Virus record (IMG/VR): IMGVR_UViG_2667527582_000001
Source: a virus
Lineage: Duplodnaviria; Heunggongvirae; Uroviricota; Caudoviricetes
Length of the DNA: 16,984 nt
Strand: one strand, 5' to 3'
Of the stretch, positions 2,598 to 15,417 are shown piece by piece (within the stretch, counting starts at the first letter, position 1; each line of letters opens with the position of its first letter). Position numbers and translations under genes: made by a program. Below the pieces are notes generated by a model that was given only the letters and a program-made list of their open reading frames with translations, ran no database searches and was not told where the DNA came from.

Positions 2598-2969
2598 CTA
2601 TATGTAACAATCAATTTCTAAAGATACCCCCAACATTGCCAGACAACCGTCAATAAACCCTTCAGCTTTCTGCAGTCTGATAACAACCTGATTAAGTGAT
2701 ATCCCCAGTTTTACCCCCAACGCCCGTAATGTAACCCCATACACATAATACATTTCCAGTAATTCGTATTGATACGGTTCCTTTTTCTTAAGAACTGTCA
2801 TTGCAGAGCTAATGATCAGGCCATCGTCATCGCTACATTGCGGGCGGGATTTTACTTTCGAAGGAATTAATCCCTTAAAACCTGCAGCAACAGATGACCA
2901 TTCCACATCCTCGTGATTATTTGCCACCCATGCCCCCCAACGTTCAAGAACCATTTGAATATCACGCAT
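2598..2969 (-). CDS. Late-gene antiterminator Q (QuuD / phage-82-type Q family), ~123 aa
   Basis: MRDIQMVLERWGAWVANNHEDVEWSSVAAGFKGLIP... matches my recollection of E. coli QuuD; C-terminal HTH-like segment LLEMYYVYGVTLRALGVKLGISLNQVVIRLQ. ATG at 2969 preceded by GGAG at 7 nt; the ORF-track start at 2984 is an upstream TTG. Confidence 0.75.
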   Translation of the reverse strand: MRDIQMVLERWGAWVANNHEDVEWSSVAAGFKGLIPSKVKSRPQCSDDDGLIISSAMTVLKKKEPYQYELLEMYYVYGVTLRALGVKLGISLNQVVIRLQKAEGFIDGCLAMLGVSLEIDCYI

Positions 2970-2986
2970 CAACTTTCTCCACAAAA

Positions 2987-3982
2987 TCAGGCCAGCACGC
3001 CTATTGCCAGCGCACGATCGATAAAACGAAATATCAGCTCCAGCTGGGAGCCATACTTCTCTTCAAATGCCACGGTATCCGCATGCAGCTCGTCGTGATG
3101 CTTTCTGCACAAAGGCAACACAAAGAGGTCATGCGCTTTTGTACCCATTCCACCCTGACCGTGGCCTATCAGGTGGTGGGGATCATCAGCAGGCTTTCCA
3201 CAACATGCACACGGCTGTGTCTTAACCCAGCGCGTGTACTTTTCATTAACCCAGCGGCGGCGTTTTGGGCGTAACATAAAAGACTCCGGCGACTCCGGAT
3301 CCACTTTCAGCGCCAGCACCTTTTTCGCTTTATCCTGGATGATGCTGGTGGCAGGAACCGAAGGCACAAGGTCACTCTCCCGGGTGACAGACGGCACAAC
3401 AGGTTTCGGTAATCTCAGCGCCTTACGGGCTGCGCTTTCAGGTAAGGCATCCGCCAGGTCATTACGAATCAGCCACCAGCACAGTTCCGGCATTGTCACG
3501 GCATGGTTATCATCAAAACCGAGATCCCGACGGACTACAGACAACACCCAGCGGGCACAGTTATCCGTTGCCATTGATTCCAGCCGTTCCGTGAACTGAT
3601 CGCGCAGCTGGTTATCGCAGTGCCAGCACAGACGGATTGCGCCCGGAGCGTGTCGCATTGTGGTCATGTTCTCGCTGTGCCAGTCGGAATGAGGCCACTG
3701 GCAGCCTTTTTCACGAAGTAACCAGCTTTCAAGACATTCCACGCCACCAGCACGACGGATCACTGCCTCATTGCGGAACACGGCCCGAACGGCAGGATCA
3801 TCCGCCAGCGGTTGTGATACCGCCGGAACGGCACCACTGGCGAAAGATGAATAACGTTCCGGCTCAGGCTCCAGCAGGACACGCCCCTGCATAAACAGGG
3901 GCATCAGCTCTGAACCTGGCCTGAACAATACGATCCCCATACGCGGGGCAATTTCAGGGGTCAGTAGTGCTCTCACGGTCAC
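2987..3982 (-). CDS. DUF968-like protein with C-terminal HNH-like Cys/His motif (YdfU-like nin-region protein), 331 aa
   Basis: C-terminus CACCGKPADDPHHLIGHGQGGMGTKAHDLFVLPLCRKHHDELH is the Cys/His pattern of DUF968/HNH-like proteins found before Q in lambdoid prophages. Apparent GTG start at 3982 overlapping the KilA-N stop. Confidence 0.6.
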   Translation of the reverse strand: MTVRALLTPEIAPRMGIVLFRPGSELMPLFMQGRVLLEPEPERYSSFASGAVPAVSQPLADDPAVRAVFRNEAVIRRAGGVECLESWLLREKGCQWPHSDWHSENMTTMRHAPGAIRLCWHCDNQLRDQFTERLESMATDNCARWVLSVVRRDLGFDDNHAVTMPELCWWLIRNDLADALPESAARKALRLPKPVVPSVTRESDLVPSVPATSIIQDKAKKVLALKVDPESPESFMLRPKRRRWVNEKYTRWVKTQPCACCGKPADDPHHLIGHGQGGMGTKAHDLFVLPLCRKHHDELHADTVAFEEKYGSQLELIFRFIDRALAIGVLA

Positions 3983-7658: not shown

Positions 7659-7879
7659 GCCGCACCTCCGAGATGCTTCATGTTTTTTCCGGAGCGAAAG
7701 GCTATAAGCGGCATACTGACGCGGTAATTACGGCCCAGCGGTTCACAAATCACCTTCTGACATTCACGGTCAACCAGGCTAACACGTAGAACATGCCCTG
7801 CAGGCGTGGTGTACCACTGACCGGGGCGAGGACAACGGAAAGTCTGATTGGTAAATCGTTTGAAAATATTCCGGATCAT
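7655..7879 (-). CDS. Hypothetical small protein, 74 aa, translationally coupled between the Rha-like and O-like genes
   Basis: ATG overlaps the Rha stop (ATGA) and its stop overlaps the O-like ATG (ATGA). No recognisable motif. Confidence 0.45.
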   Translation of the reverse strand: MIRNIFKRFTNQTFRCPRPGQWYTTPAGHVLRVSLVDRECQKVICEPLGRNYRVSMPLIAFRSGKNMKHLGGAA

Positions 7880-8421
7880 TTGCGCCCCCTTACCTCTGAA
7901 GAGTTCAGCGACGAATGAATAAGACGGGCAAGAAATGCCGCATCGTTAATTCGGTCATACAGACTTACAGCCAGAGGTGATTCAGCTTTTTCCAGCATGG
8001 GATAAAGCTGCTGCAACCAGACCTGATGAATTGATGAAATGTAGGAATAGAGAACGCTGGCGTTATGTGCAACGTCGCTCGGTACAGCGGGCTTTGAAAG
8101 CTGTTTCTCCATCTGGTTAAAGGCATTGATGTATGCCTCTTTGAACTGGGCAGCACGTTTACCCGTGAAACCCATAGCAAGAAACGCAAAGCCGTCGCGG
8201 GTTATTTGATAGCAAGGTAGTTTGCGGCCTGTGCAATCGGTGTAATCACTCACCGAAAAATTGCGGGCAGTGAATGATGCGGAACATTCAAGCGTGCGGA
8301 TCTTTTTCAGTACATCGTCATGACGTTTGGAGAAGAAGTTGGCAACAGCCAGGGATGAAGTAACAGCCTGACCATCAACGATGGCAATTTCAGGTTGAGT
8401 GAGGGTTGGGATCGTAGCCAT
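7876..8421 (-). CDS. Rha-family phage regulatory protein, 181 aa if started at the internal ATG
   Basis: MATIPTLTQPEIAIVDGQAVTSSLAVANFFSKRHDDVLKKIRTL...YQITRDGFAFLAMGFTGKRAAQFKEAYINAFNQME matches the Rha signature. ATG at 8421 has GGAG 9 nt upstream. The stop-to-stop ORF continues in frame to 9024, but that extension is low in charged residues and TTA-rich. Confidence 0.6.
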   Translation of the reverse strand: MATIPTLTQPEIAIVDGQAVTSSLAVANFFSKRHDDVLKKIRTLECSASFTARNFSVSDYTDCTGRKLPCYQITRDGFAFLAMGFTGKRAAQFKEAYINAFNQMEKQLSKPAVPSDVAHNASVLYSYISSIHQVWLQQLYPMLEKAESPLAVSLYDRINDAAFLARLIHSSLNSSEVRGRK

Positions 8422-9020
8422 GATGGCAGTCTCCGATAACAGTGAATTACCTTCACCACCGGAAACGCCAATTTCGCTGGTGGTGAACTGAACGGGGTTG
8501 GCGTAACCGGCGTTATCGGAAACCGGCGCACCTTTCGGTGCCCCCGTCCAGCCCACCATAATTTGGGTGTGCACAGACGCAGACGATAAAAAAGACGCTG
8601 GCGCGTCATATATCGCCGATAACATTTCCAGGACGCCAATCCCGACACCCGCTTTATAAGGTGCCTGAACAGTGTAACGTCCCGGAATGGCAGAATCAAT
8701 GTGCTGGTGGTCCTTCACACTCAACAAAATCACGCCTGAATTTCCACAAAGGACTAAAGCACTCATGCGGGTAGTCTTTGCGAAGATAGATAACGCGCTG
8801 TGTTTCTGGCTCCCAACGAATAACATGGACATAAAGCCCTCTTCCGTCACGAAACCAGCGGTTAAGTTCCTGCACAACTCGCCCCCCACAGTCAGGTAAA
8901 GTTCTCTGTGGTTACTTACAGCCAGGTGATTTGGTAATCTGCATTCATGCCGTAACAACAGGTGTTCAGCGACGCTGACCACCAGCTGTTGCGACAAACG
9001 GTTATTTGCCGTTAAACTGT

Positions 9021-9584
9021 TCATGCGTTAGTTTCTCCACAGACACAAAACGCCACGACGCCCGGAGCTGCACACTCGCGGGCGTCACTCTTTTCTGGAG
9101 CGCAAAAGATTTTGTAGACCAGTGCTGCATGCTCCTGGAGCTTCGAAATTGACAGATACAACTCATCATTAATTGCTGTCTGCTCGTGTGGCTCCACTAC
9201 CCCATCTTCGATTGCCGAACGAATCTGCTTTGAGTAACTCCCGATCTGTTCGATGACTTCCAGCAGGCGCTGGTTTATATCGGCGTTCTCTACTTCCTCA
9301 AGTTCAGGAAGCGATACAAACACCCCACCAGCAGACTGTGCGACAGCATCCGCAATGTAGTGAGTGCCAGCCGCGCGCTGTAAAATCATTGCCCATCCCA
9401 GCGGGAAAATCTGATCGCCATCTGCACGAAGGCGGTTGAATAAAGCGTTCTCTGTTACATCCAGCCACTCAGCAGCTTCAGCGTAACCTCCCGGCAACGC
9501 CGCGATAGTTTTTCTGACAGCTTTCACGTACCACTCAGGCTGTTTTTCTACTTTCCAGTGATGCTTACCCACGGTTAGCCTCAT
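9021..9584 (-). CDS. CII-like early regulatory protein (assigned by position and size only), 187 aa
   Basis: Follows cro in the cII position; stop overlaps the next ORF's ATG. Family assignment not verifiable by eye; weak SD. Confidence 0.4.
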   Translation of the reverse strand: MRLTVGKHHWKVEKQPEWYVKAVRKTIAALPGGYAEAAEWLDVTENALFNRLRADGDQIFPLGWAMILQRAAGTHYIADAVAQSAGGVFVSLPELEEVENADINQRLLEVIEQIGSYSKQIRSAIEDGVVEPHEQTAINDELYLSISKLQEHAALVYKIFCAPEKSDARECAAPGVVAFCVCGETNA

Positions 9585-9821: not shown

Positions 9822-9840
9822 ATGTACCTCCGATATACAT
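9822..9840. promoter_or_regulatory. Operator-like 19-bp site 1 (ATGTACC-N5-ATATACAT), overlapping the cro SD and the putative PR -10
   Basis: atgtacctccgatatacat; shares the ATGTACC ... TACAT dyad with the sites at 9872 and 10626. Confidence 0.55.
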
Positions 9841-9866
9841 ATTACATGATTGAGATGAACCTTCAA
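9839..9866 (-). promoter_or_regulatory. Putative PR-like promoter for cro
   Basis: On the minus strand: TTGAAG (-35), 16-nt spacer, TAATAT (-10), about 20 nt before the cro SD. Assigned by eye. Confidence 0.4.
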
Positions 9867-9871
9867 GATAC

Positions 9872-9890
9872 TTGTACCCTATCGGTACAA
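9872..9890. promoter_or_regulatory. Operator-like 19-bp site 2, perfect dyad TTGTACC-CTATC-GGTACAA
   Basis: Perfect 7-bp inverted repeat around a 5-bp spacer, between the divergent cro and cI starts. Confidence 0.6.
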
Positions 9891-9906: not shown

Positions 9907-10581
9907 ATGAAAACAGTCCATGACATCCGGCGGTCTAACGCCAGAAAACTGAGAGATGGTGTTGGCGGGAATTCTTCCTTTGCCACCATGATTGATCGCG
10001 AGCCAACCCAGACCAGCAGGTTTATGGGAGATGGTGCTACTAAAAATATCGGTGACAGCATGGCACGGCACATCGAAAAATGTTTCGACCTGCCTGTCGG
10101 ATGGCTTGATCAAGAACACCAGACAACAAACATCACAAAAAAACCTGATGTTTCAATTACTAACAAACAAATAACGTTAGTCCCTGTCATATCATGGGTA
10201 CAGGCCGGAGCATGGAAAGAAGTTGGCTATTCTGAGGTTGATTTGAGCACAGCAGAAACTTATCCCTGCCCTGTACCCTGTGGCGAAATGACTTATATCT
10301 TGCGGGTGATTGGTGATTCAATGATTGATGAGTACCGCCCGGGAGACATGATTTTTGTTGATCCTGAAGTCCCTGCCTGCCACGGTGACGACGTTATTGC
10401 ATTGATGCACGATACAGGCGAAACCACCTTCAAGCGGTTGATAGAAGATGGAACACAGCGTTACCTCAAAGCATTAAACCCAAACTGGCCTGAACCTTAC
10501 ATTAAGATCAACGGTAATTGCTCTATAATTGGTACAGTGATTTTCTCAGGAAAACCAAGAAGATACAAAATAAAGGCCTAA
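9907..10581 (+). CDS. CI-like prophage repressor: N-terminal HTH plus C-terminal S24 (LexA-like) autopeptidase domain, 224 aa
   Basis: C-terminal LRVIGDSMIDEYRPGDMIFVDPEV... is the S24 peptidase pattern (catalytic Ser in GDSM, a Lys further downstream). N-terminal region is HTH-like. Divergent from cro. Confidence 0.8.
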   Translation: MKTVHDIRRSNARKLRDGVGGNSSFATMIDREPTQTSRFMGDGATKNIGDSMARHIEKCFDLPVGWLDQEHQTTNITKKPDVSITNKQITLVPVISWVQAGAWKEVGYSEVDLSTAETYPCPVPCGEMTYILRVIGDSMIDEYRPGDMIFVDPEVPACHGDDVIALMHDTGETTFKRLIEDGTQRYLKALNPNWPEPYIKINGNCSIIGTVIFSGKPRRYKIKA

Positions 10582-10593
10582 TCAATATTTATA

Positions 10594-10616
10594 ACCTGCT
10601 TCGGCAGGTTTTTTTA
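10594..10616 (+). terminator. Rho-independent terminator after the repressor gene
   Basis: acctgc-ttcg-gcaggt hairpin followed by TTTTTTT. Confidence 0.75.
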
Positions 10617-10619
10617 TAC

Positions 10620-10647
10620 TTGACAATGTACCCTTGAGATACATAAT
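10620..10647 (+). promoter_or_regulatory. Strong sigma70 PL-like promoter reading rightward into the early-left (yfdP-side) operon
   Basis: TTGACA (10620-10625, 6/6), 16-nt spacer, CATAAT (10642-10647, 5/6). Overlapped by operator site 3. Confidence 0.65.
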
Positions 10648-10652
10648 GTATC
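10626..10652. promoter_or_regulatory. Operator-like site 3 (ATGTACC-N5-GATACAT) overlapping a 15-bp perfect palindrome GATACAT-A-ATGTATC across the -10
   Basis: atgtacccttgagatacat (10626-10644) shares the operator consensus; gatacataatgtatc (10638-10652) is a perfect palindrome. Confidence 0.5.
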
Positions 10653-10654
10653 TA

Positions 10655-11084
10655 AAAGAAACATAACACAGGCAAGATTAAACTAAATTTGGTTGTAACA
10701 CGGCGTATGGCACATGCGTCGTTAGCGGTCTGGGGACGTTAAAGGGGACAATCCACTCCTTGCTCGAGCAAACAAACCAGGTAGCCGGAATGTGCAAGTC
10801 AATGATGATGCTGATAAGACGCCTAACCAGCGTGGCGATTCGGTTTGACGCCTGGGAAGAGACCAGGGTGCAACGATGAGGGCATTTATGGAACCGCGAC
10901 AAAGTGTGGTGCCGTAACTGGCTAAGTGCTCTCAGCGTTGTGGTGAATGCGCAGGCTGATGCGCGAAAGACATTGCAGCTATTGCGGAAAAGAGCTGTTC
11001 GGCGGGGCAATTAAACGCCCGTGAGAGTCTGAAATAACCGCAAGCCGGAGATCAGCACCGGTCACCACAACAGCCACTGCTTTG
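10655..11084 (+). ncRNA. Long untranslated leader / candidate non-coding RNA transcribed from the PL-like promoter
   Basis: About 430 nt from the predicted start to a strong intrinsic terminator, relatively GC-rich, with no ORF of 60 aa or more on the plus strand and only short SD-less ORFs (11-29 aa). No N-like gene where lambda has N. Confidence 0.3.
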
Positions 11085-11130
11085 GCGGTACCAGTTTGTA
11101 CACTTGCTTCCGGCTGGTACCGCTCTTTTT
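11085..11130 (+). terminator. Intrinsic terminator inside the early-left leader
   Basis: Perfect 10-bp stem gcggtaccag (11085-11094) / ctggtaccgc (11114-11123), 19-nt loop, then TCTTTTT. Confidence 0.6.
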
Positions 11131-11131
11131 A

Positions 11132-11218
11132 CAAAACAGAGAAGAGCATCACCGGACGACGGGCTCATAACCCAATCCATCCGGGCGGCTGCCACCGCAG
11201 GTGTTCTTCTCTGTTTTG
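11132..11218 (+). promoter_or_regulatory. Long-range 14-bp perfect stem enclosing ~59 nt of GC-rich sequence, just upstream of the yfdP-like SD
   Basis: caaaacagagaaga (11132-11145) pairs perfectly with tcttctctgttttg (11205-11218). Confidence 0.45.
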
Positions 11219-11267
11219 TGGAGAAACTAACCGACCTTGCAGGGTCGATATGATGAGGAGCAGCAAA

Positions 11268-11630
11268 ATGGCTAGCGAACGCAGTACTGATGTGCAGGCA
11301 TTTATCGGGGAGCTGGACGGCGGCGTATTTGAAACCAAAATCGGCGCAGTTCTCAGTGAAGTCGCTTCCGGTGTGATGAACACGAAAACCAAAGGTAAGG
11401 TCTCGCTCAACCTGGAAATCGAACCATTTGATGAGAACCGTGTGAAAATCAAACACAAACTCTCATATGTTCGCCCGACTAACCGCGGGAAAATTTCCGA
11501 AGAAGACACCACCGAAACACCGATGTATGTCAATCGCGGTGGTCGCCTGACTATTCTGCAGGAAGACCAGGGACAATTACTGACTCTTGCCGGTGAACCT
11601 GACGGAAAACTACGCGCAGCAGGTCATTAA
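11268..11630 (+). CDS. YfdP-like hypothetical protein, 120 aa
   Basis: ATG at 11268 preceded by GAGGAG at 7 nt; the track ORF start at 11082 is an upstream TTG running through the terminator. Length matches my recollection of YfdP. Confidence 0.6.
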   Translation: MASERSTDVQAFIGELDGGVFETKIGAVLSEVASGVMNTKTKGKVSLNLEIEPFDENRVKIKHKLSYVRPTNRGKISEEDTTETPMYVNRGGRLTILQEDQGQLLTLAGEPDGKLRAAGH

Positions 11631-13957: not shown

Positions 13958-14845
13958 ATGAATACTCTTACCAAAGAATGGTTACAGAACACGATTACCG
14001 GAATTGAGTCGATAATAGACGATAAATCGTTTGTATGTAGTGAAATAGCATTCGAAATAGGTGTGGTTAACAACATACTTACCGCATTTAAAATTGCACT
14101 GGCATCGCTGGAAGCAGATCCAGTTGCTTATATTTTCAAACATCCGGCCGGGAAATTATTCTGGGCTTTAACTGATGAAAGCAATAAAGAGCAAGCTGAC
14201 GTTATTCCTGTTTATGCTGCCGCGCCTGCGTCGGTTGTGCCGGATAATGCATCAGAGCCTCTTGCTTATGCTTACAAAGAGCTTACGCCTGAGATTATGC
14301 GCAACCATTTAGCTGTATTCGAGCGATATGGAATAGCCCCAAACGATAGCTCTACCACAATTCAGGCACTGCGAATCGCGCTGGATGGCATAGAGCGGAG
14401 CGGCGCCATGCTTCATGGTGCCGAACCTGTAAGCCAAACTTACAAGTTGCCTCCCCTGTCATCCAACGAAGTAAACGACGCGGCATGGAAATTACGCAAC
14501 ATGCTTACTGAACACGGTCCTCTTAATGGGCGTCAGTTCAACAATCTGAAAGGTTGCTTCTATGAGGCATTAAAGGTCGCAATGCGCAACTATCCGGTAA
14601 CTCCGGATAGTTGGATAAGCTGTAGTGATCGAATGCCAGAAATGGGAGAGCGACAATGCTATGCGTTAGCGGCTGACTTTAAAAACAACTACCCGCCACA
14701 CATCCCCAACACTCAGGTCGGCGTATATGGCGACTGGTTTAATGATGGCGATCCCACTTGGGTTGACGGTGATGGCGAAGACCTGTATCTCAAAGAGGTA
14801 ACCCACTGGATTCCGCTACCAGAACCGCCGCAGGAGGTGAAGTGA
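13958..14845 (+). CDS. Hypothetical phage protein with a C-terminal DUF551-like segment, 295 aa
   Basis: C-terminal WISCSDRMPEMGERQCYALA...THWIPLPEPPQ resembles the DUF551 pattern as I recall it. Tight spacing to neighbours. Confidence 0.55.
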   Translation: MNTLTKEWLQNTITGIESIIDDKSFVCSEIAFEIGVVNNILTAFKIALASLEADPVAYIFKHPAGKLFWALTDESNKEQADVIPVYAAAPASVVPDNASEPLAYAYKELTPEIMRNHLAVFERYGIAPNDSSTTIQALRIALDGIERSGAMLHGAEPVSQTYKLPPLSSNEVNDAAWKLRNMLTEHGPLNGRQFNNLKGCFYEALKVAMRNYPVTPDSWISCSDRMPEMGERQCYALAADFKNNYPPHIPNTQVGVYGDWFNDGDPTWVDGDGEDLYLKEVTHWIPLPEPPQEVK

Positions 14846-15417
14846 TGAACAACTTAATGATCGACCTTGAGACGATGGGGAAAAATAAGGATGCACCGAT
14901 CGTTTCCATTGGCGCGGTGTTCTTCACTCCAGAAACCGGAGACATCGGACAAGAATTCTATACGGTTGTTAGCCTGGAAAGTGCTATGGGGCAAGGAGCT
15001 ACACCTGACGGCGATACCATCCTGTGGTGGTTGAAACAAAGCCCTGAAGCACGAGCTGCAATCTGTATTGATGATACTTTGTCGATCAGCGATGCTCTCT
15101 CAGAACTAAATCATTTCATTAACCGGCACGCAGACAATACGAAATATTTAAAAGTCTGGGGTAACGGAGCCACCTTCGACAACGTAATTTTACGTGGAGC
15201 TTATGAGCGAGCAGGACAAATCTGTCCGTGGGCATACTGGAATGACCACGATGTACGCACGATCGTTACGCTTGGGCGTTCCATCGGATTCGACCCCAAA
15301 ATGGACATGCCTTTCGATGGCGAACGGCACAACGCCATGGCTGATGCCCGTCATCAGGCAAAATATGTTTCCGCTATCTGGCAGAAATTAATTCCTGCCA
15401 CCAGCACAGAATTATGA
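14845..15417 (+). CDS. DEDD-family 3'-5' exonuclease (DnaQ-like fold), 190 aa
   Basis: MIDLETMG (Exo I, D-x-E), FDNVIL (Exo II-like) and HNAMADARHQA (Exo III, DEDDh-type His). ATG at 14845 overlaps the upstream TGA, with GGAGG 7 nt upstream. Confidence 0.7.
   Translation: MNNLMIDLETMGKNKDAPIVSIGAVFFTPETGDIGQEFYTVVSLESAMGQGATPDGDTILWWLKQSPEARAAICIDDTLSISDALSELNHFINRHADNTKYLKVWGNGATFDNVILRGAYERAGQICPWAYWNDHDVRTIVTLGRSIGFDPKMDMPFDGERHNAMADARHQAKYVSAIWQKLIPATSTEL

Follow-up and report, generated by a model that had tools for sequence, protein, structure and literature searches.

The window analysed here, a stretch of 16,984 nucleotides (nt) recorded in IMG/VR as IMGVR_UViG_2667527582_000001, belongs to a lambdoid prophage whose near relatives are phages Ayreon, cdtI and mEp460 and the Stx2c phages. 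Between a repressor-controlled promoter and yfdP, the first gene of the early-left (PL-type) operon, lies an interval that is the non-coding leader of this operon and is built of conserved structured RNA modules. In order from the promoter these are a four-helix 5’ domain designated dom5, a long hairpin designated P0, a ~140-nt motif designated the core, a strong terminator and a second P0-type hairpin, followed by the yfdP ribosome-binding site. Upstream, the leader unit is bounded by the plus-strand intrinsic terminator (AACCTGC-TTCG-GCAGGTT, 10593–10610, or 10593–10620 with its T-run, from a terminator scan) of a repressor gene encoding a LexA/S24-type, cI-like protein of 224 amino acids (9907–10581, Pfam Peptidase_S24). 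The leader promoter, a PL-like sigma-70 element on the plus strand (10620–10647), consists of TTGACA (10620–10625), a 16-nt spacer and CATAAT (10642–10647) and matches the consensus at 11 of 12 positions; the annotation of phage Ayreon places a promoter at the equivalent site. Two 19-bp repressor operators of the form ATGTAYC-N5-RRTACAT, ATGTACCCTTGAGATACAT (10626–10644) and ATGTATCTAAAAGAAACAT (10646–10664), cover the promoter spacer, the −10 hexamer and the inferred transcription start, and three further copies of the palindrome lie at 9822–9890, between the divergent cI-like and cro-side genes. The palindrome gave 10 strand matches against 0.45 expected, a number reached in none of 200 shuffles. 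The overlapping operators and the copies at 9822–9890 identify this as a repressor-controlled promoter of the OL/PL type, and the near-consensus promoter with an overlapping operator described in the initial annotation was borne out. The downstream boundary is formed by a Shine-Dalgarno sequence, GAGGAG (11254–11259), and by yfdP itself (120 amino acids, plus strand, feature 11254–11630; YfdP annotation, phrog_204), whose ATG lies at 11268, corrected from 11269.

No plausible gene is present in the ~620 nt between promoter and yfdP (10650–11267). On the plus strand no open reading frame (ORF) of at least 40 amino acids occurs before 11082, and the minus-strand ORF at 10678–11010 has no family match. 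The early-left genes of the window encode YfdP, YfdQ/DUF2303, a YfbR-like protein, a DUF551 protein, an Rv2179c-like exoribonuclease and a PrtN-like protein, with no N homologue or arginine-rich N-like ORF among them, as the initial annotation had stated. It had also raised the possibility of an unannotated small protein; candidates are an N-like factor with a non-canonical start and the product of a minus-strand ORF. Phage Ayreon carries annotated ORFs of 39 and 64 amino acids in this region, and a minus-strand ORF at 11052–11456 matches phrog_3651 with an E value of 5e-85, its sole match. The function of phrog_3651 is unknown and the ORF has no Pfam match; it runs antisense through yfdP and through a covarying P0-type hairpin, and phrog_3651 is probably a shadow-ORF family that arose from repeated annotation of highly conserved non-coding DNA. 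Conservation in the interval instead follows the helices of a plus-strand RNA, with compensatory changes and G.U pairs, and occurs in blocks that cross the ORFs, and no conserved ORF or arginine-rich N-like frame was found there. A protein-coding role is thus effectively excluded and is given next to no weight. One further candidate, a decayed HNH-endonuclease gene at 10925–11000 (MRRLMRERHCSYCGKEL...), was ruled out, as this region corresponds to a covarying RNA hairpin and a variable arm.

The folding energy of 10655–11135 was uninformative, with z-scores of −1.15 on the plus strand and −1.33 on the minus strand. The assignment of structure rests on comparative evidence, namely covariation, and it is this that upheld the ORF-free structured leader of the initial annotation. 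No family of Rfam 15, including ROOL, GOLLD and the known ribozymes and riboswitches, matched the leader, either at gathering thresholds across the whole window or above noise at E ≤ 10 for 10500–11400; for 12 related loci Rfam returned nothing but tRNAs and weak tmRNA matches upstream of the core. ARAGORN found no tRNA or tmRNA gene in the window. Comparison by BLAST with phage genomes splits the interval into blocks that have unrelated relatives and whose borders cut across any ORF. The block at 10687–10943 matches SPN1S, Tyrion, mEp390, phage P1, where it directly follows tRNA-Ile and precedes ban, and phiV10-like phages, where tRNA-Arg comes directly after it. In the P1-like phage RCS47 the match to the block at 10924–11072 lies immediately downstream of tRNA-Asn and tRNA-Thr, and the 40-nt centre of this block is shared at ~92% identity with T1-like, Vi01-like and many other phages, whereas the block at 11083–11270 matches SfV and SfIV. 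The leader is therefore a composite of horizontally shuffled phage RNA modules, neither one novel small RNA nor a hidden gene. Parts of it are present in 3024 of 5426 complete Escherichia coli genomes.

The core (10932–11075, plus strand) was delimited with a covariance model, R1, built from 40 sequences that include the window’s own copy, and it is the only match to this model in the window (84.6 bits, E 7e-22). It is closed by a helix, P1, in which GUUGUGGUG (10937–10945) pairs with CACCACAAC (11063–11071). The junction AAU (10946–10948) leads into hairpin H1 (GCGCA-GGCUGA-UGCGC, 10949–10964), followed by a variable arm (10965–11043) and by hairpin H2 (GCCGG-AGAUCAGCA-CCGGU, 11044–11062), which abuts the 3’ strand of the closing helix. 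H1 and H2 are nearly invariant, and their loops are complementary (GCUGAU with AUCAGC). The same architecture was obtained repeatedly when copies of the core were folded as single sequences. Within the 40-sequence alignment, 94.9% of positions expected to pair do so, against 24–53% when the partners are slid, with changes on both sides in seven of nine closing-helix pairs and two of five H2 pairs; none of 500 shuffles attained the observed covariation. Compensatory H1 stems occur in phage P1 (GCACA/UGUGC) and at locus L059 (GCGUA/UACGC), and the kissing loops themselves show a compensatory variant, GGUGAU with AUCACC, in the diverged copy L063 (C-G to G-C). Given the G.U pairs in its covarying helices, the RNA is encoded on the plus strand.

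The core is a self-contained four-way-junction RNA, and we infer that its connectivity is that of a tRNA. As in a cloverleaf, the closing helix continues into the 5-bp H2 without a linker and is joined to H1 by 3 nt, the variable arm occupies the place of the anticodon arm, and the H1 and H2 loops meet at the position of the elbow. The variable arm holds a D-arm/T-arm mimic at L111 and a whole tRNA at L094. No consistent 3’ CCA follows the closing helix in the core copies. The core is compact and joins several helices, with near-invariant nucleotides and a tertiary loop–loop contact, all of which might also be expected of a new class of small self-cleaving ribozyme, which would cut the leader, or arrays of tRNAs and other non-coding RNAs, at a fixed point. 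The twister, pistol and hatchet ribozymes have a phage-associated, context-independent distribution to which that of the core can be likened, and the core occupies the position of a known processing site in lambda. However, the core has neither a match to an Rfam ribozyme nor a nameable cleavage-site signature, and its invariant nucleotides lie mostly in the stems and loops of the hairpins rather than in the junction strands, so that self-cleavage appears decidedly improbable.

The core family is large and is without representation in Rfam 15, and no published description of the motif was found in the literature searched. An exact 21-mer, TGAATGCGCAGGCTGATGCGC, occurs at no fewer than 120 loci (at least 120) in IMG/VR and again at at least 120 loci in bacterial contigs sampled at one genome per species, with hosts in Enterobacterales, Pseudomonas, Halomonas, Xanthomonadales, Burkholderiales and Rhizobiales, and thus in Gamma-, Beta- and Alphaproteobacteria. 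An H2-type hairpin, GCCGG-AGAUCAGCA-CCGGC, follows the 21-mer at a distance of 27–180 nt in 116 of 125 copies. The 21-mer was also seen in a few metagenome-assembled genomes labelled Flavobacterium, Coriobacteriia, Phycisphaerales and Acidobacteriota (L150, L153, L176 and L197), which could reflect true breadth or mis-binned phage contigs. Model R1 finds unannotated copies of the core in phage P1, RCS47 and Tyrion. In the leader of the ban operon of phage P1 (L002, AF234172) these lie at 1303–1413 and 1564–1696 on the sense strand, and in RCS47 (L004) at 2509–2652, 2938–3048 and 3199–3332; the plp and upl ORFs, which run antisense to these copies, may be a mis-annotated RNA-gene region. The CPS-53 prophage of E. 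coli K-12 has yfdP and no copy of the core. Modules of the leader are common to phage P1 and to phiV10-like, T1-like, Vi01-like and many other phages, often beside tRNA genes, and in 21 of 124 copies a tRNA gene lies within 500 nt of the core, on the same strand every time.

Among lambdoid phages the placement of the core is more specific. At nine loci in N-encoding lambdoid or P22-like prophages the order is PL operators, boxA (UGCUCUUUAACAA), a boxB hairpin of P22 or lambda type (for example P22-type GCGCUGACAAAGCGC), a small hairpin CCAAAG..CUUUGG and the core, after which come a spacer of 10–20 nt, GGAGG and the start codon (ATG) of a gene for an arginine-rich N-like protein. Consensus boxA is strongly enriched 59–190 nt upstream of the core, with 15 matches against ~0.1 expected. 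At two further loci (L017 and L160) a put RNA of the HK022/HK639 type ends 31 nt before the core. By clustering of neighbouring ORFs at 80 bacterial genome loci, a cI-like repressor lies upstream on the same strand at 19, and YfdP- and YfdQ-like ORFs are recurrent downstream neighbours. When the N leader of lambda is compared with L030, the flanks are homologous (boxA, boxB, CAAAG..CUUUGGGGUGUG and ..CACACCACCAAAGCUAACU..GGAGAAUCC..AUG) whereas the interiors differ, the interior of lambda at this slot being its RNase III-sensitive N-leader domain. The order of nut or put, core and ribosome-binding site, together with the homology of the lambda flanks, therefore defines the core as the occupant of a slot that extends from the antitermination site to the first ribosome-binding site. 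Both leaders share PL with an antitermination site, a small hairpin CAAAG..CUUUG, a domain of ~100–150 nt and a Shine-Dalgarno sequence; the domain is closed by the long-range helix GGGGUGUG/CACACCACC, and the helix and flanks of L030, which surround the core there, are homologous to those of lambda. A structured domain with a long-range closing helix between antitermination site and first ribosome-binding site is accordingly found in the core family, at L030 and the nine nutL-core-N loci. The core of the window sits at the corresponding place relative to its promoter and in the same order, but with a terminator and a hairpin interposed between it and the first gene. Unlike the lambda domain, the core has an unrelated interior, a four-way junction with kissing loops, and its family extends far beyond lambdoid phages into tRNA arrays, while the window has neither nutL nor N.

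In the window, the place of nut or put upstream of the core is taken by dom5 (10697–10868, plus strand), which was defined from an alignment of 13 phage copies, with homologues in the phages matched by the first block at the positions given there. It comprises a hairpin (10701–10709 with 10713–10721), a helix (10726–10733 with 10777–10780 and 10784–10787), a helix in two segments (10798–10800 with 10834–10836 and 10819–10822 with 10830–10833) and a hairpin with the loop GAAGAGA (10851–10855 with 10863–10867), and contains an invariant segment, GGUAGCCGGAAUGUGCAAG, at ~10780–10798. Its consensus fold shows a compensatory change in nine of 29 predicted pairs across 10 phage copies. Upstream of 239 non-redundant copies of the core, boxA was found in 21, put in four and dom5 in 12, and these were never found together. 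As dom5 sits in the slot of the nut/put antitermination site, it is reasonable to regard it as an RNA-based antitermination module, and we infer that it is the candidate antitermination module of this N-less phage. Phages of this type, without N, ‘may have’ put-like antitermination (PMC12315714).

Antitermination of the HK022 put kind, one of the possibilities raised by the initial annotation, is thus plausible in kind, since put of HK022 and HK639 is also a cis-acting RNA just after PL in N-less lambdoid phages; a put element in the strict sense was not found. A covariance model of put, R2, built from seven sequences and scoring 98.9 bits on the put copy in L017, gave no match in the leader at E ≤ 5, and because this model fails to detect the window, membership of the HK022-type put family is not supported. 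A BLAST search with put found only L017 and L160 among the loci, and neither R1 nor R2 matched on the PR side of the window, so there is no putL/putR-like pair. Such put RNAs have two stem-loops with conserved CGAACGGC..CG and GG..AGG..GA..G.CAAU, and they let polymerase pass terminators without a phage protein, in dependence on the zinc-binding domain of its beta’ subunit. Hairpin 10701–10721 of dom5 does have CGGCG...CAUG-CGUCG of put stem I (positions 10–14 and 26–34), and GCCGGAAUGUGC in the leader resembles CGGCAAUGCUGC of put; both are short local resemblances only, and the region of CGGCAAUGCUGC contacts polymerase in the cryo-electron microscopy structure (PMC9378689). In contrast to put, with ~70 nt, two stem-loops and a triplex, dom5 has ~170 nt and four helices and lacks a PR-side copy, and true put elements co-occur with the core, upstream of it. 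No boxA (CGCUCUUA or UGCUCUUUAACAA) was found in 10600–11270 at up to three mismatches, the closest resemblance in the leader being UGCUCUCA, within a paired strand of P0.

Antitermination could in principle be a property of the core rather than of dom5. The core would then be a processive antiterminator or anti-Rho element, a cis-acting analogue of put on the transcribing RNA polymerase, causing read-through of the terminator that lies 10 nt downstream; this we consider quite unlikely. An equally slim prospect is that such a core would also shield long untranslated RNA arrays from Rho. The strong terminator immediately downstream in an N-less phage would fit, as would the presence of the core in long untranslated arrays of tRNAs and non-coding RNAs that would face Rho, an extreme sequence conservation that suits binding to a conserved polymerase, and an association with rrn-type boxA in a subset of copies. 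Nevertheless, in other phages the core lies downstream of bona fide nut and put sites, complete nutL in those that encode N, which would leave no need for a second antiterminator; the core is therefore unlikely to have that role. There is also no copy of it in the PR-side operon of the window, and a four-way junction with kissing loops spanning 100–240 nt is unlike the two stem-loops of put (PMC9378689).

Between dom5 and the core, the P0 hairpin (10871–10940, plus strand) is formed by pairing of CAACGAUGAGGGCAUUU (10871–10887) with AAGUGCUCUCAGCGUUG (10924–10940); it was identified by comparison and is recovered in the minimum free energy fold. It belongs to a widespread type of hairpin, ACAACAGGUAAGAGCAYUG...CAGUGCUCUUUCCGUUGUGG, found ahead of the core in ~40 of the 239 non-redundant copies, with covarying variants AAGGACACUGG/CCAGUGUUCUU and AAUGACACUUG/CGAGUGUCAUU and often a T-arm-like hairpin in its interior. 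GUUG(UG) is common to P0, at its 3’ end, and to the closing helix of the core, in its 5’ strand, so that formation of one helix takes a few nucleotides from the other; in the window the last 4 nt of P0 belong to both. CACAAC was also seen on both sides of GUUGUG at module junctions (L033, ~900–960; RCS47, ~2640–2670), where the 3’ strand of one unit is the 5’ start of the next P0. The modules therefore make up head-to-tail arrays with competing helices, which could serve to switch the fold or could record the way in which the modules were disseminated.

Downstream of the core, the intrinsic terminator within the leader (11084–11130, plus strand; 11085–11130 in the initial annotation) has a GC-rich stem of 10–11 bp, formed by GGCGGTACCAG (11084–11094) and CTGGTACCGC (11114–11123), a 19-nt loop and the run UCUUUUU (11124–11130). 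The hairpin, as in near-identical viral loci, folds with −21.2 kcal/mol, and a simple terminator scanner misses it because its loop exceeds 8 nt. Both stem and T-run are kept in the diverged relative L028. Across the family, a terminator lies within ~110 nt of the core in 34 of 109 non-redundant copies, against nine of 109 for a control region. An aptamer-like conserved fold directly upstream of an intrinsic terminator recalls a riboswitch, in which the core would sense a ligand and the terminator at 11084–11130 would be the expression platform. This is very improbable: no alternative pairing of the 3’ strand of the closing helix with the terminator is evident by eye, the spacer between them is 25 nt longer in L028, what follows most copies of the core is not a terminator but a tRNA, another module or a ribosome-binding site, and phage P1 has tandem copies. 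Following the terminator, an orphan P0-type hairpin (11131–11219, plus strand) of ~18 bp, ACAAAACAGAGAAGAGCA (11131–11148) with UGUUCUUCUCUGUUUUGU (11202–11219), folds with −46.2 kcal/mol directly upstream of the yfdP ribosome-binding site. The ‘14-bp perfect long-range stem’ noted earlier is real, although it is the base of this longer hairpin. Relative to L028, where a terminator and a hairpin of this type precede a different first gene, it shows two compensatory pairs, and its interior holds GACGGGCUCAUAACCCAAUCC (sub-motif GACGGGNNCAUAWCCCAAUC), which is common to the P0 hairpins of phage P1 and other phages.

Taken with the position of each module, these observations lead us to propose, tentatively and at a little under an even chance, that the leader acts in cis on the early operon, with dom5 as its candidate module for antitermination and the core as a module for processing or insulation. 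In place of nut or put, dom5 would let RNA polymerase pass the leader terminator and go on through the operon. The core would fold alone into a compact domain, with the antitermination RNA associated with the polymerase on one side and the message on the other, and, by analogy with the N leader of lambda, might be a processing or insulating point and the substrate of a host RNase such as RNase P or RNase III. RNase P is a candidate besides RNase III because the core is tRNA-like in shape and is found in tRNA contexts. For the N leader of lambda, RNase III cleavage and translational autoregulation were reportedly established by the Court laboratory. Transcripts ending at 11130 would be structured RNAs of ~475 nt.

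Several observations weigh against this proposal. No homology of dom5 to put was detected and it has no boxA; its assignment draws on position and 12 copies, and it also occurs where no operon leader is obvious, as downstream of tRNA-Ile in phage P1 and upstream of tRNA-Arg in phiV10-like phages. The core lacks a 3’ CCA at the tRNA position, and its closing helix has 9–12 bp instead of 7. Near-invariance of 21 nt across bacterial classes exceeds what a mere RNase site or structural spacer would need, and points to a specific conserved partner or to catalysis. No recognised upstream module was found for 169 of the 239 copies, and about a third of copies have a terminator directly after them. 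The next downstream ORF lies on the same strand at only 43 of 75 genome loci; as mechanical ORFs are too noisy, this orientation cannot decide between a cis and a trans role. The weak orientation bias and the adjacent terminators suit an independent RNA gene as well as a leader. Among diverged copies, phage S9-5 of Salmonella (L256, ~680–760) has put followed by a reduced mini-core, GUGCGGUGAAAUGC...CCGGG-AAGAUAAGCAA-CCCGG-CACCGCAC, and a similar degenerate copy occurs in phage P1 (L002, 1066–1125), which suggests a minimal form of the core motif.

The modules also recall tRNA and the tRNA-like domain (TLD) of tmRNA. In addition to the cloverleaf-like connectivity of the core, T-arm-like hairpins (GGUUCGAnUCC) and the segment GGUGACGG occur within many P0 hairpins, and copies of the core adjoin tRNA genes on the same strand. 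In contrast to tRNA, the elbow would be a Watson-Crick kissing interaction instead of a T-loop/D-loop contact, neither ARAGORN nor Rfam (E ≤ 10) finds a tRNA or tmRNA in the interval, and the P0 and core helices that were read (phage swi2 and the consensus) lack CCA and G3.U70, with G-C or U-A at 3:70. A direct BLAST comparison of the leader and of related loci with E. coli ssrA gave a single 11-nt match, which argues that the tmRNA-like pieces are not recent captures of host ssrA.

In relatives the likeness to tmRNA extends to reading frames. Swi2, Magnus and several viral contigs carry, 200–250 nt upstream of the core, a tmRNA-like tag module encoding ANEEMYLAVA*, ANDDVVLMAA*, ANDDLMLMAA* or ANDEQFLAVA*, with the stop codon in a hairpin loop and a conserved ...ACAAAGAUAAAU before the tag. 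Its layout is a pseudoknot-like leader, AUAAAU-GCA-AAC-GAx... and a 10-codon tag whose length and character are kept while its nucleotides vary; it is located at 1250–1425 in swi2 (L005) and is also present at L006, L033, L052, L096 and L100. These tag frames align to the Rfam family tmRNA_permuted at 26.5 bits, below the threshold of 47, and neither an alanine-type acceptor (G3.U70, CCA) nor a canonical tRNA-like domain was found near them. By BLAST 684 records of phages contain the tag module, with Felixounavirus, Ackermannviridae, T1-like and some T5-like phages among them, and among the best 40 of the 684 matches no tmRNA or other RNA feature is annotated beneath it. The window itself has no tag module, tags being confined to its relatives. 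A census of 2014 listed phage tmRNAs in mycobacteriophages and Bacillus phage G only (PMC4131195).

Other structured phage RNAs offer parallels of a looser kind. RNAI, RNAIII, RNA1, RNA2 and RNAX of T5 and the species 1 and 2 RNAs of T4 are structured, abundant and in part tRNA-like RNAs, unexplained and co-transcribed with phage tRNAs. The tRNA region of T5 (L261, NC_005859, 30284–41566) has eight annotated ‘stable RNAs with unknown functions’, among them the 719-nt RNAX beside tRNA-Arg; they show no similarity to model R1 or, by BLAST, to the modules of the window, and may be an analogous class. ROOL and GOLLD, large ornate phage-associated RNAs with mainly Firmicutes hosts, resemble the core family in their phage or prophage location, their proximity to tRNAs, which are sometimes nested within them, and their modular variable regions, whereas the core is much smaller, matches neither family in Rfam and has hosts in Proteobacteria.

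Alternatively, the leader might mainly yield a discrete RNA that ends at the terminator (~10655–11130), as the initial annotation had considered, and that would be stable and act in trans, a decoy or modulator made first after derepression, with yfdP expressed by secondary read-through; we regard this as unlikely, though it deserves weight. That the tRNA-shaped core and TLD-like P0 hairpins of this RNA would engage conserved machinery of the host or a factor of its defences, for example tRNA- or tmRNA-handling proteins such as SmpB, or nucleases directed at tRNA, is unlikely to a like degree. The terminators after the core and the weak orientation bias agree with a free RNA, as does the occurrence of the core in virulent phages within tRNA clusters, in tandem copies and with tRNAs nested in its variable arm. 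The upstream tag modules of relatives and the eight stable RNAs of T5 point the same way, and 21-nt invariance across proteobacterial classes suits a universally conserved partner. A precedent is the TLD-only molecule of mycobacteriophage DS6A, for which titration of SmpB was proposed (PMC4131195). Against a trans role, the precise and recurrent placement of the core between nut or put and the first ribosome-binding site, and its replacement of the lambda N-leader domain, favour a cis function at those loci; moreover, the window has no tag module, its P0 lacks G3.U70 and CCA, and no partner was identified. A broader possibility, somewhat doubtful as it stands, is that the core stands for a class of phage RNA not described before and spread throughout the Proteobacteria, tRNA-shaped and with kissing loops, which would have catalytic activity or a conserved host partner of its own and be far more than a local leader structure, within a larger modular system of dom5, P0, core and tmRNA-like tags in more than 600 sequenced phages that would manipulate host RNA processing, translation or ribosome rescue.

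Two other features of the window concern RNA. The Rv2179c-like 3’–5’ exoribonuclease of the same early-left operon (14842–15417, plus strand, Pfam E 1.4e-74) is an RNA-trimming enzyme co-transcribed with the tRNA-shaped leader RNA, and a functional link between them could exist. The only Rfam matches in the window are a C4 antisense RNA (82.8 bits) and an adjacent isrK RNA (61.5 bits) at 8476–8664 on the minus strand, a region with the look of an immI module for antirepressor control, of P1/P7 type, carried here by a lambdoid prophage. Both RNAs sit within a mechanical ORF (7876–9024) whose translation matches Pfam Phage_ASH (amino acids 117–212, spanning both RNAs) and Phage_pRha, and the Phage_ASH match may partly reflect translated RNA genes.

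N-less lambdoid phages of the yfdP/yfdQ type are common, and dom5 is here named as a candidate for the element by which they pass their early terminators. More generally, the early leader follows a conserved module grammar of antitermination site, hairpin, core and first gene, of which the N leader of lambda is one variant. Few phage RNA sequences that could be traced here are conserved as widely and as strictly as the core, although neither Rfam nor the annotations of phage P1 and of T1-like, Vi01-like and lambdoid phages include it. Should the core have a specific partner, it would constitute a new point of interaction between phage and host; it would also account for the ‘stable RNAs of unknown function’ long noted in the tRNA clusters of phages, and several ORFs that are probably mis-annotated would be put right.

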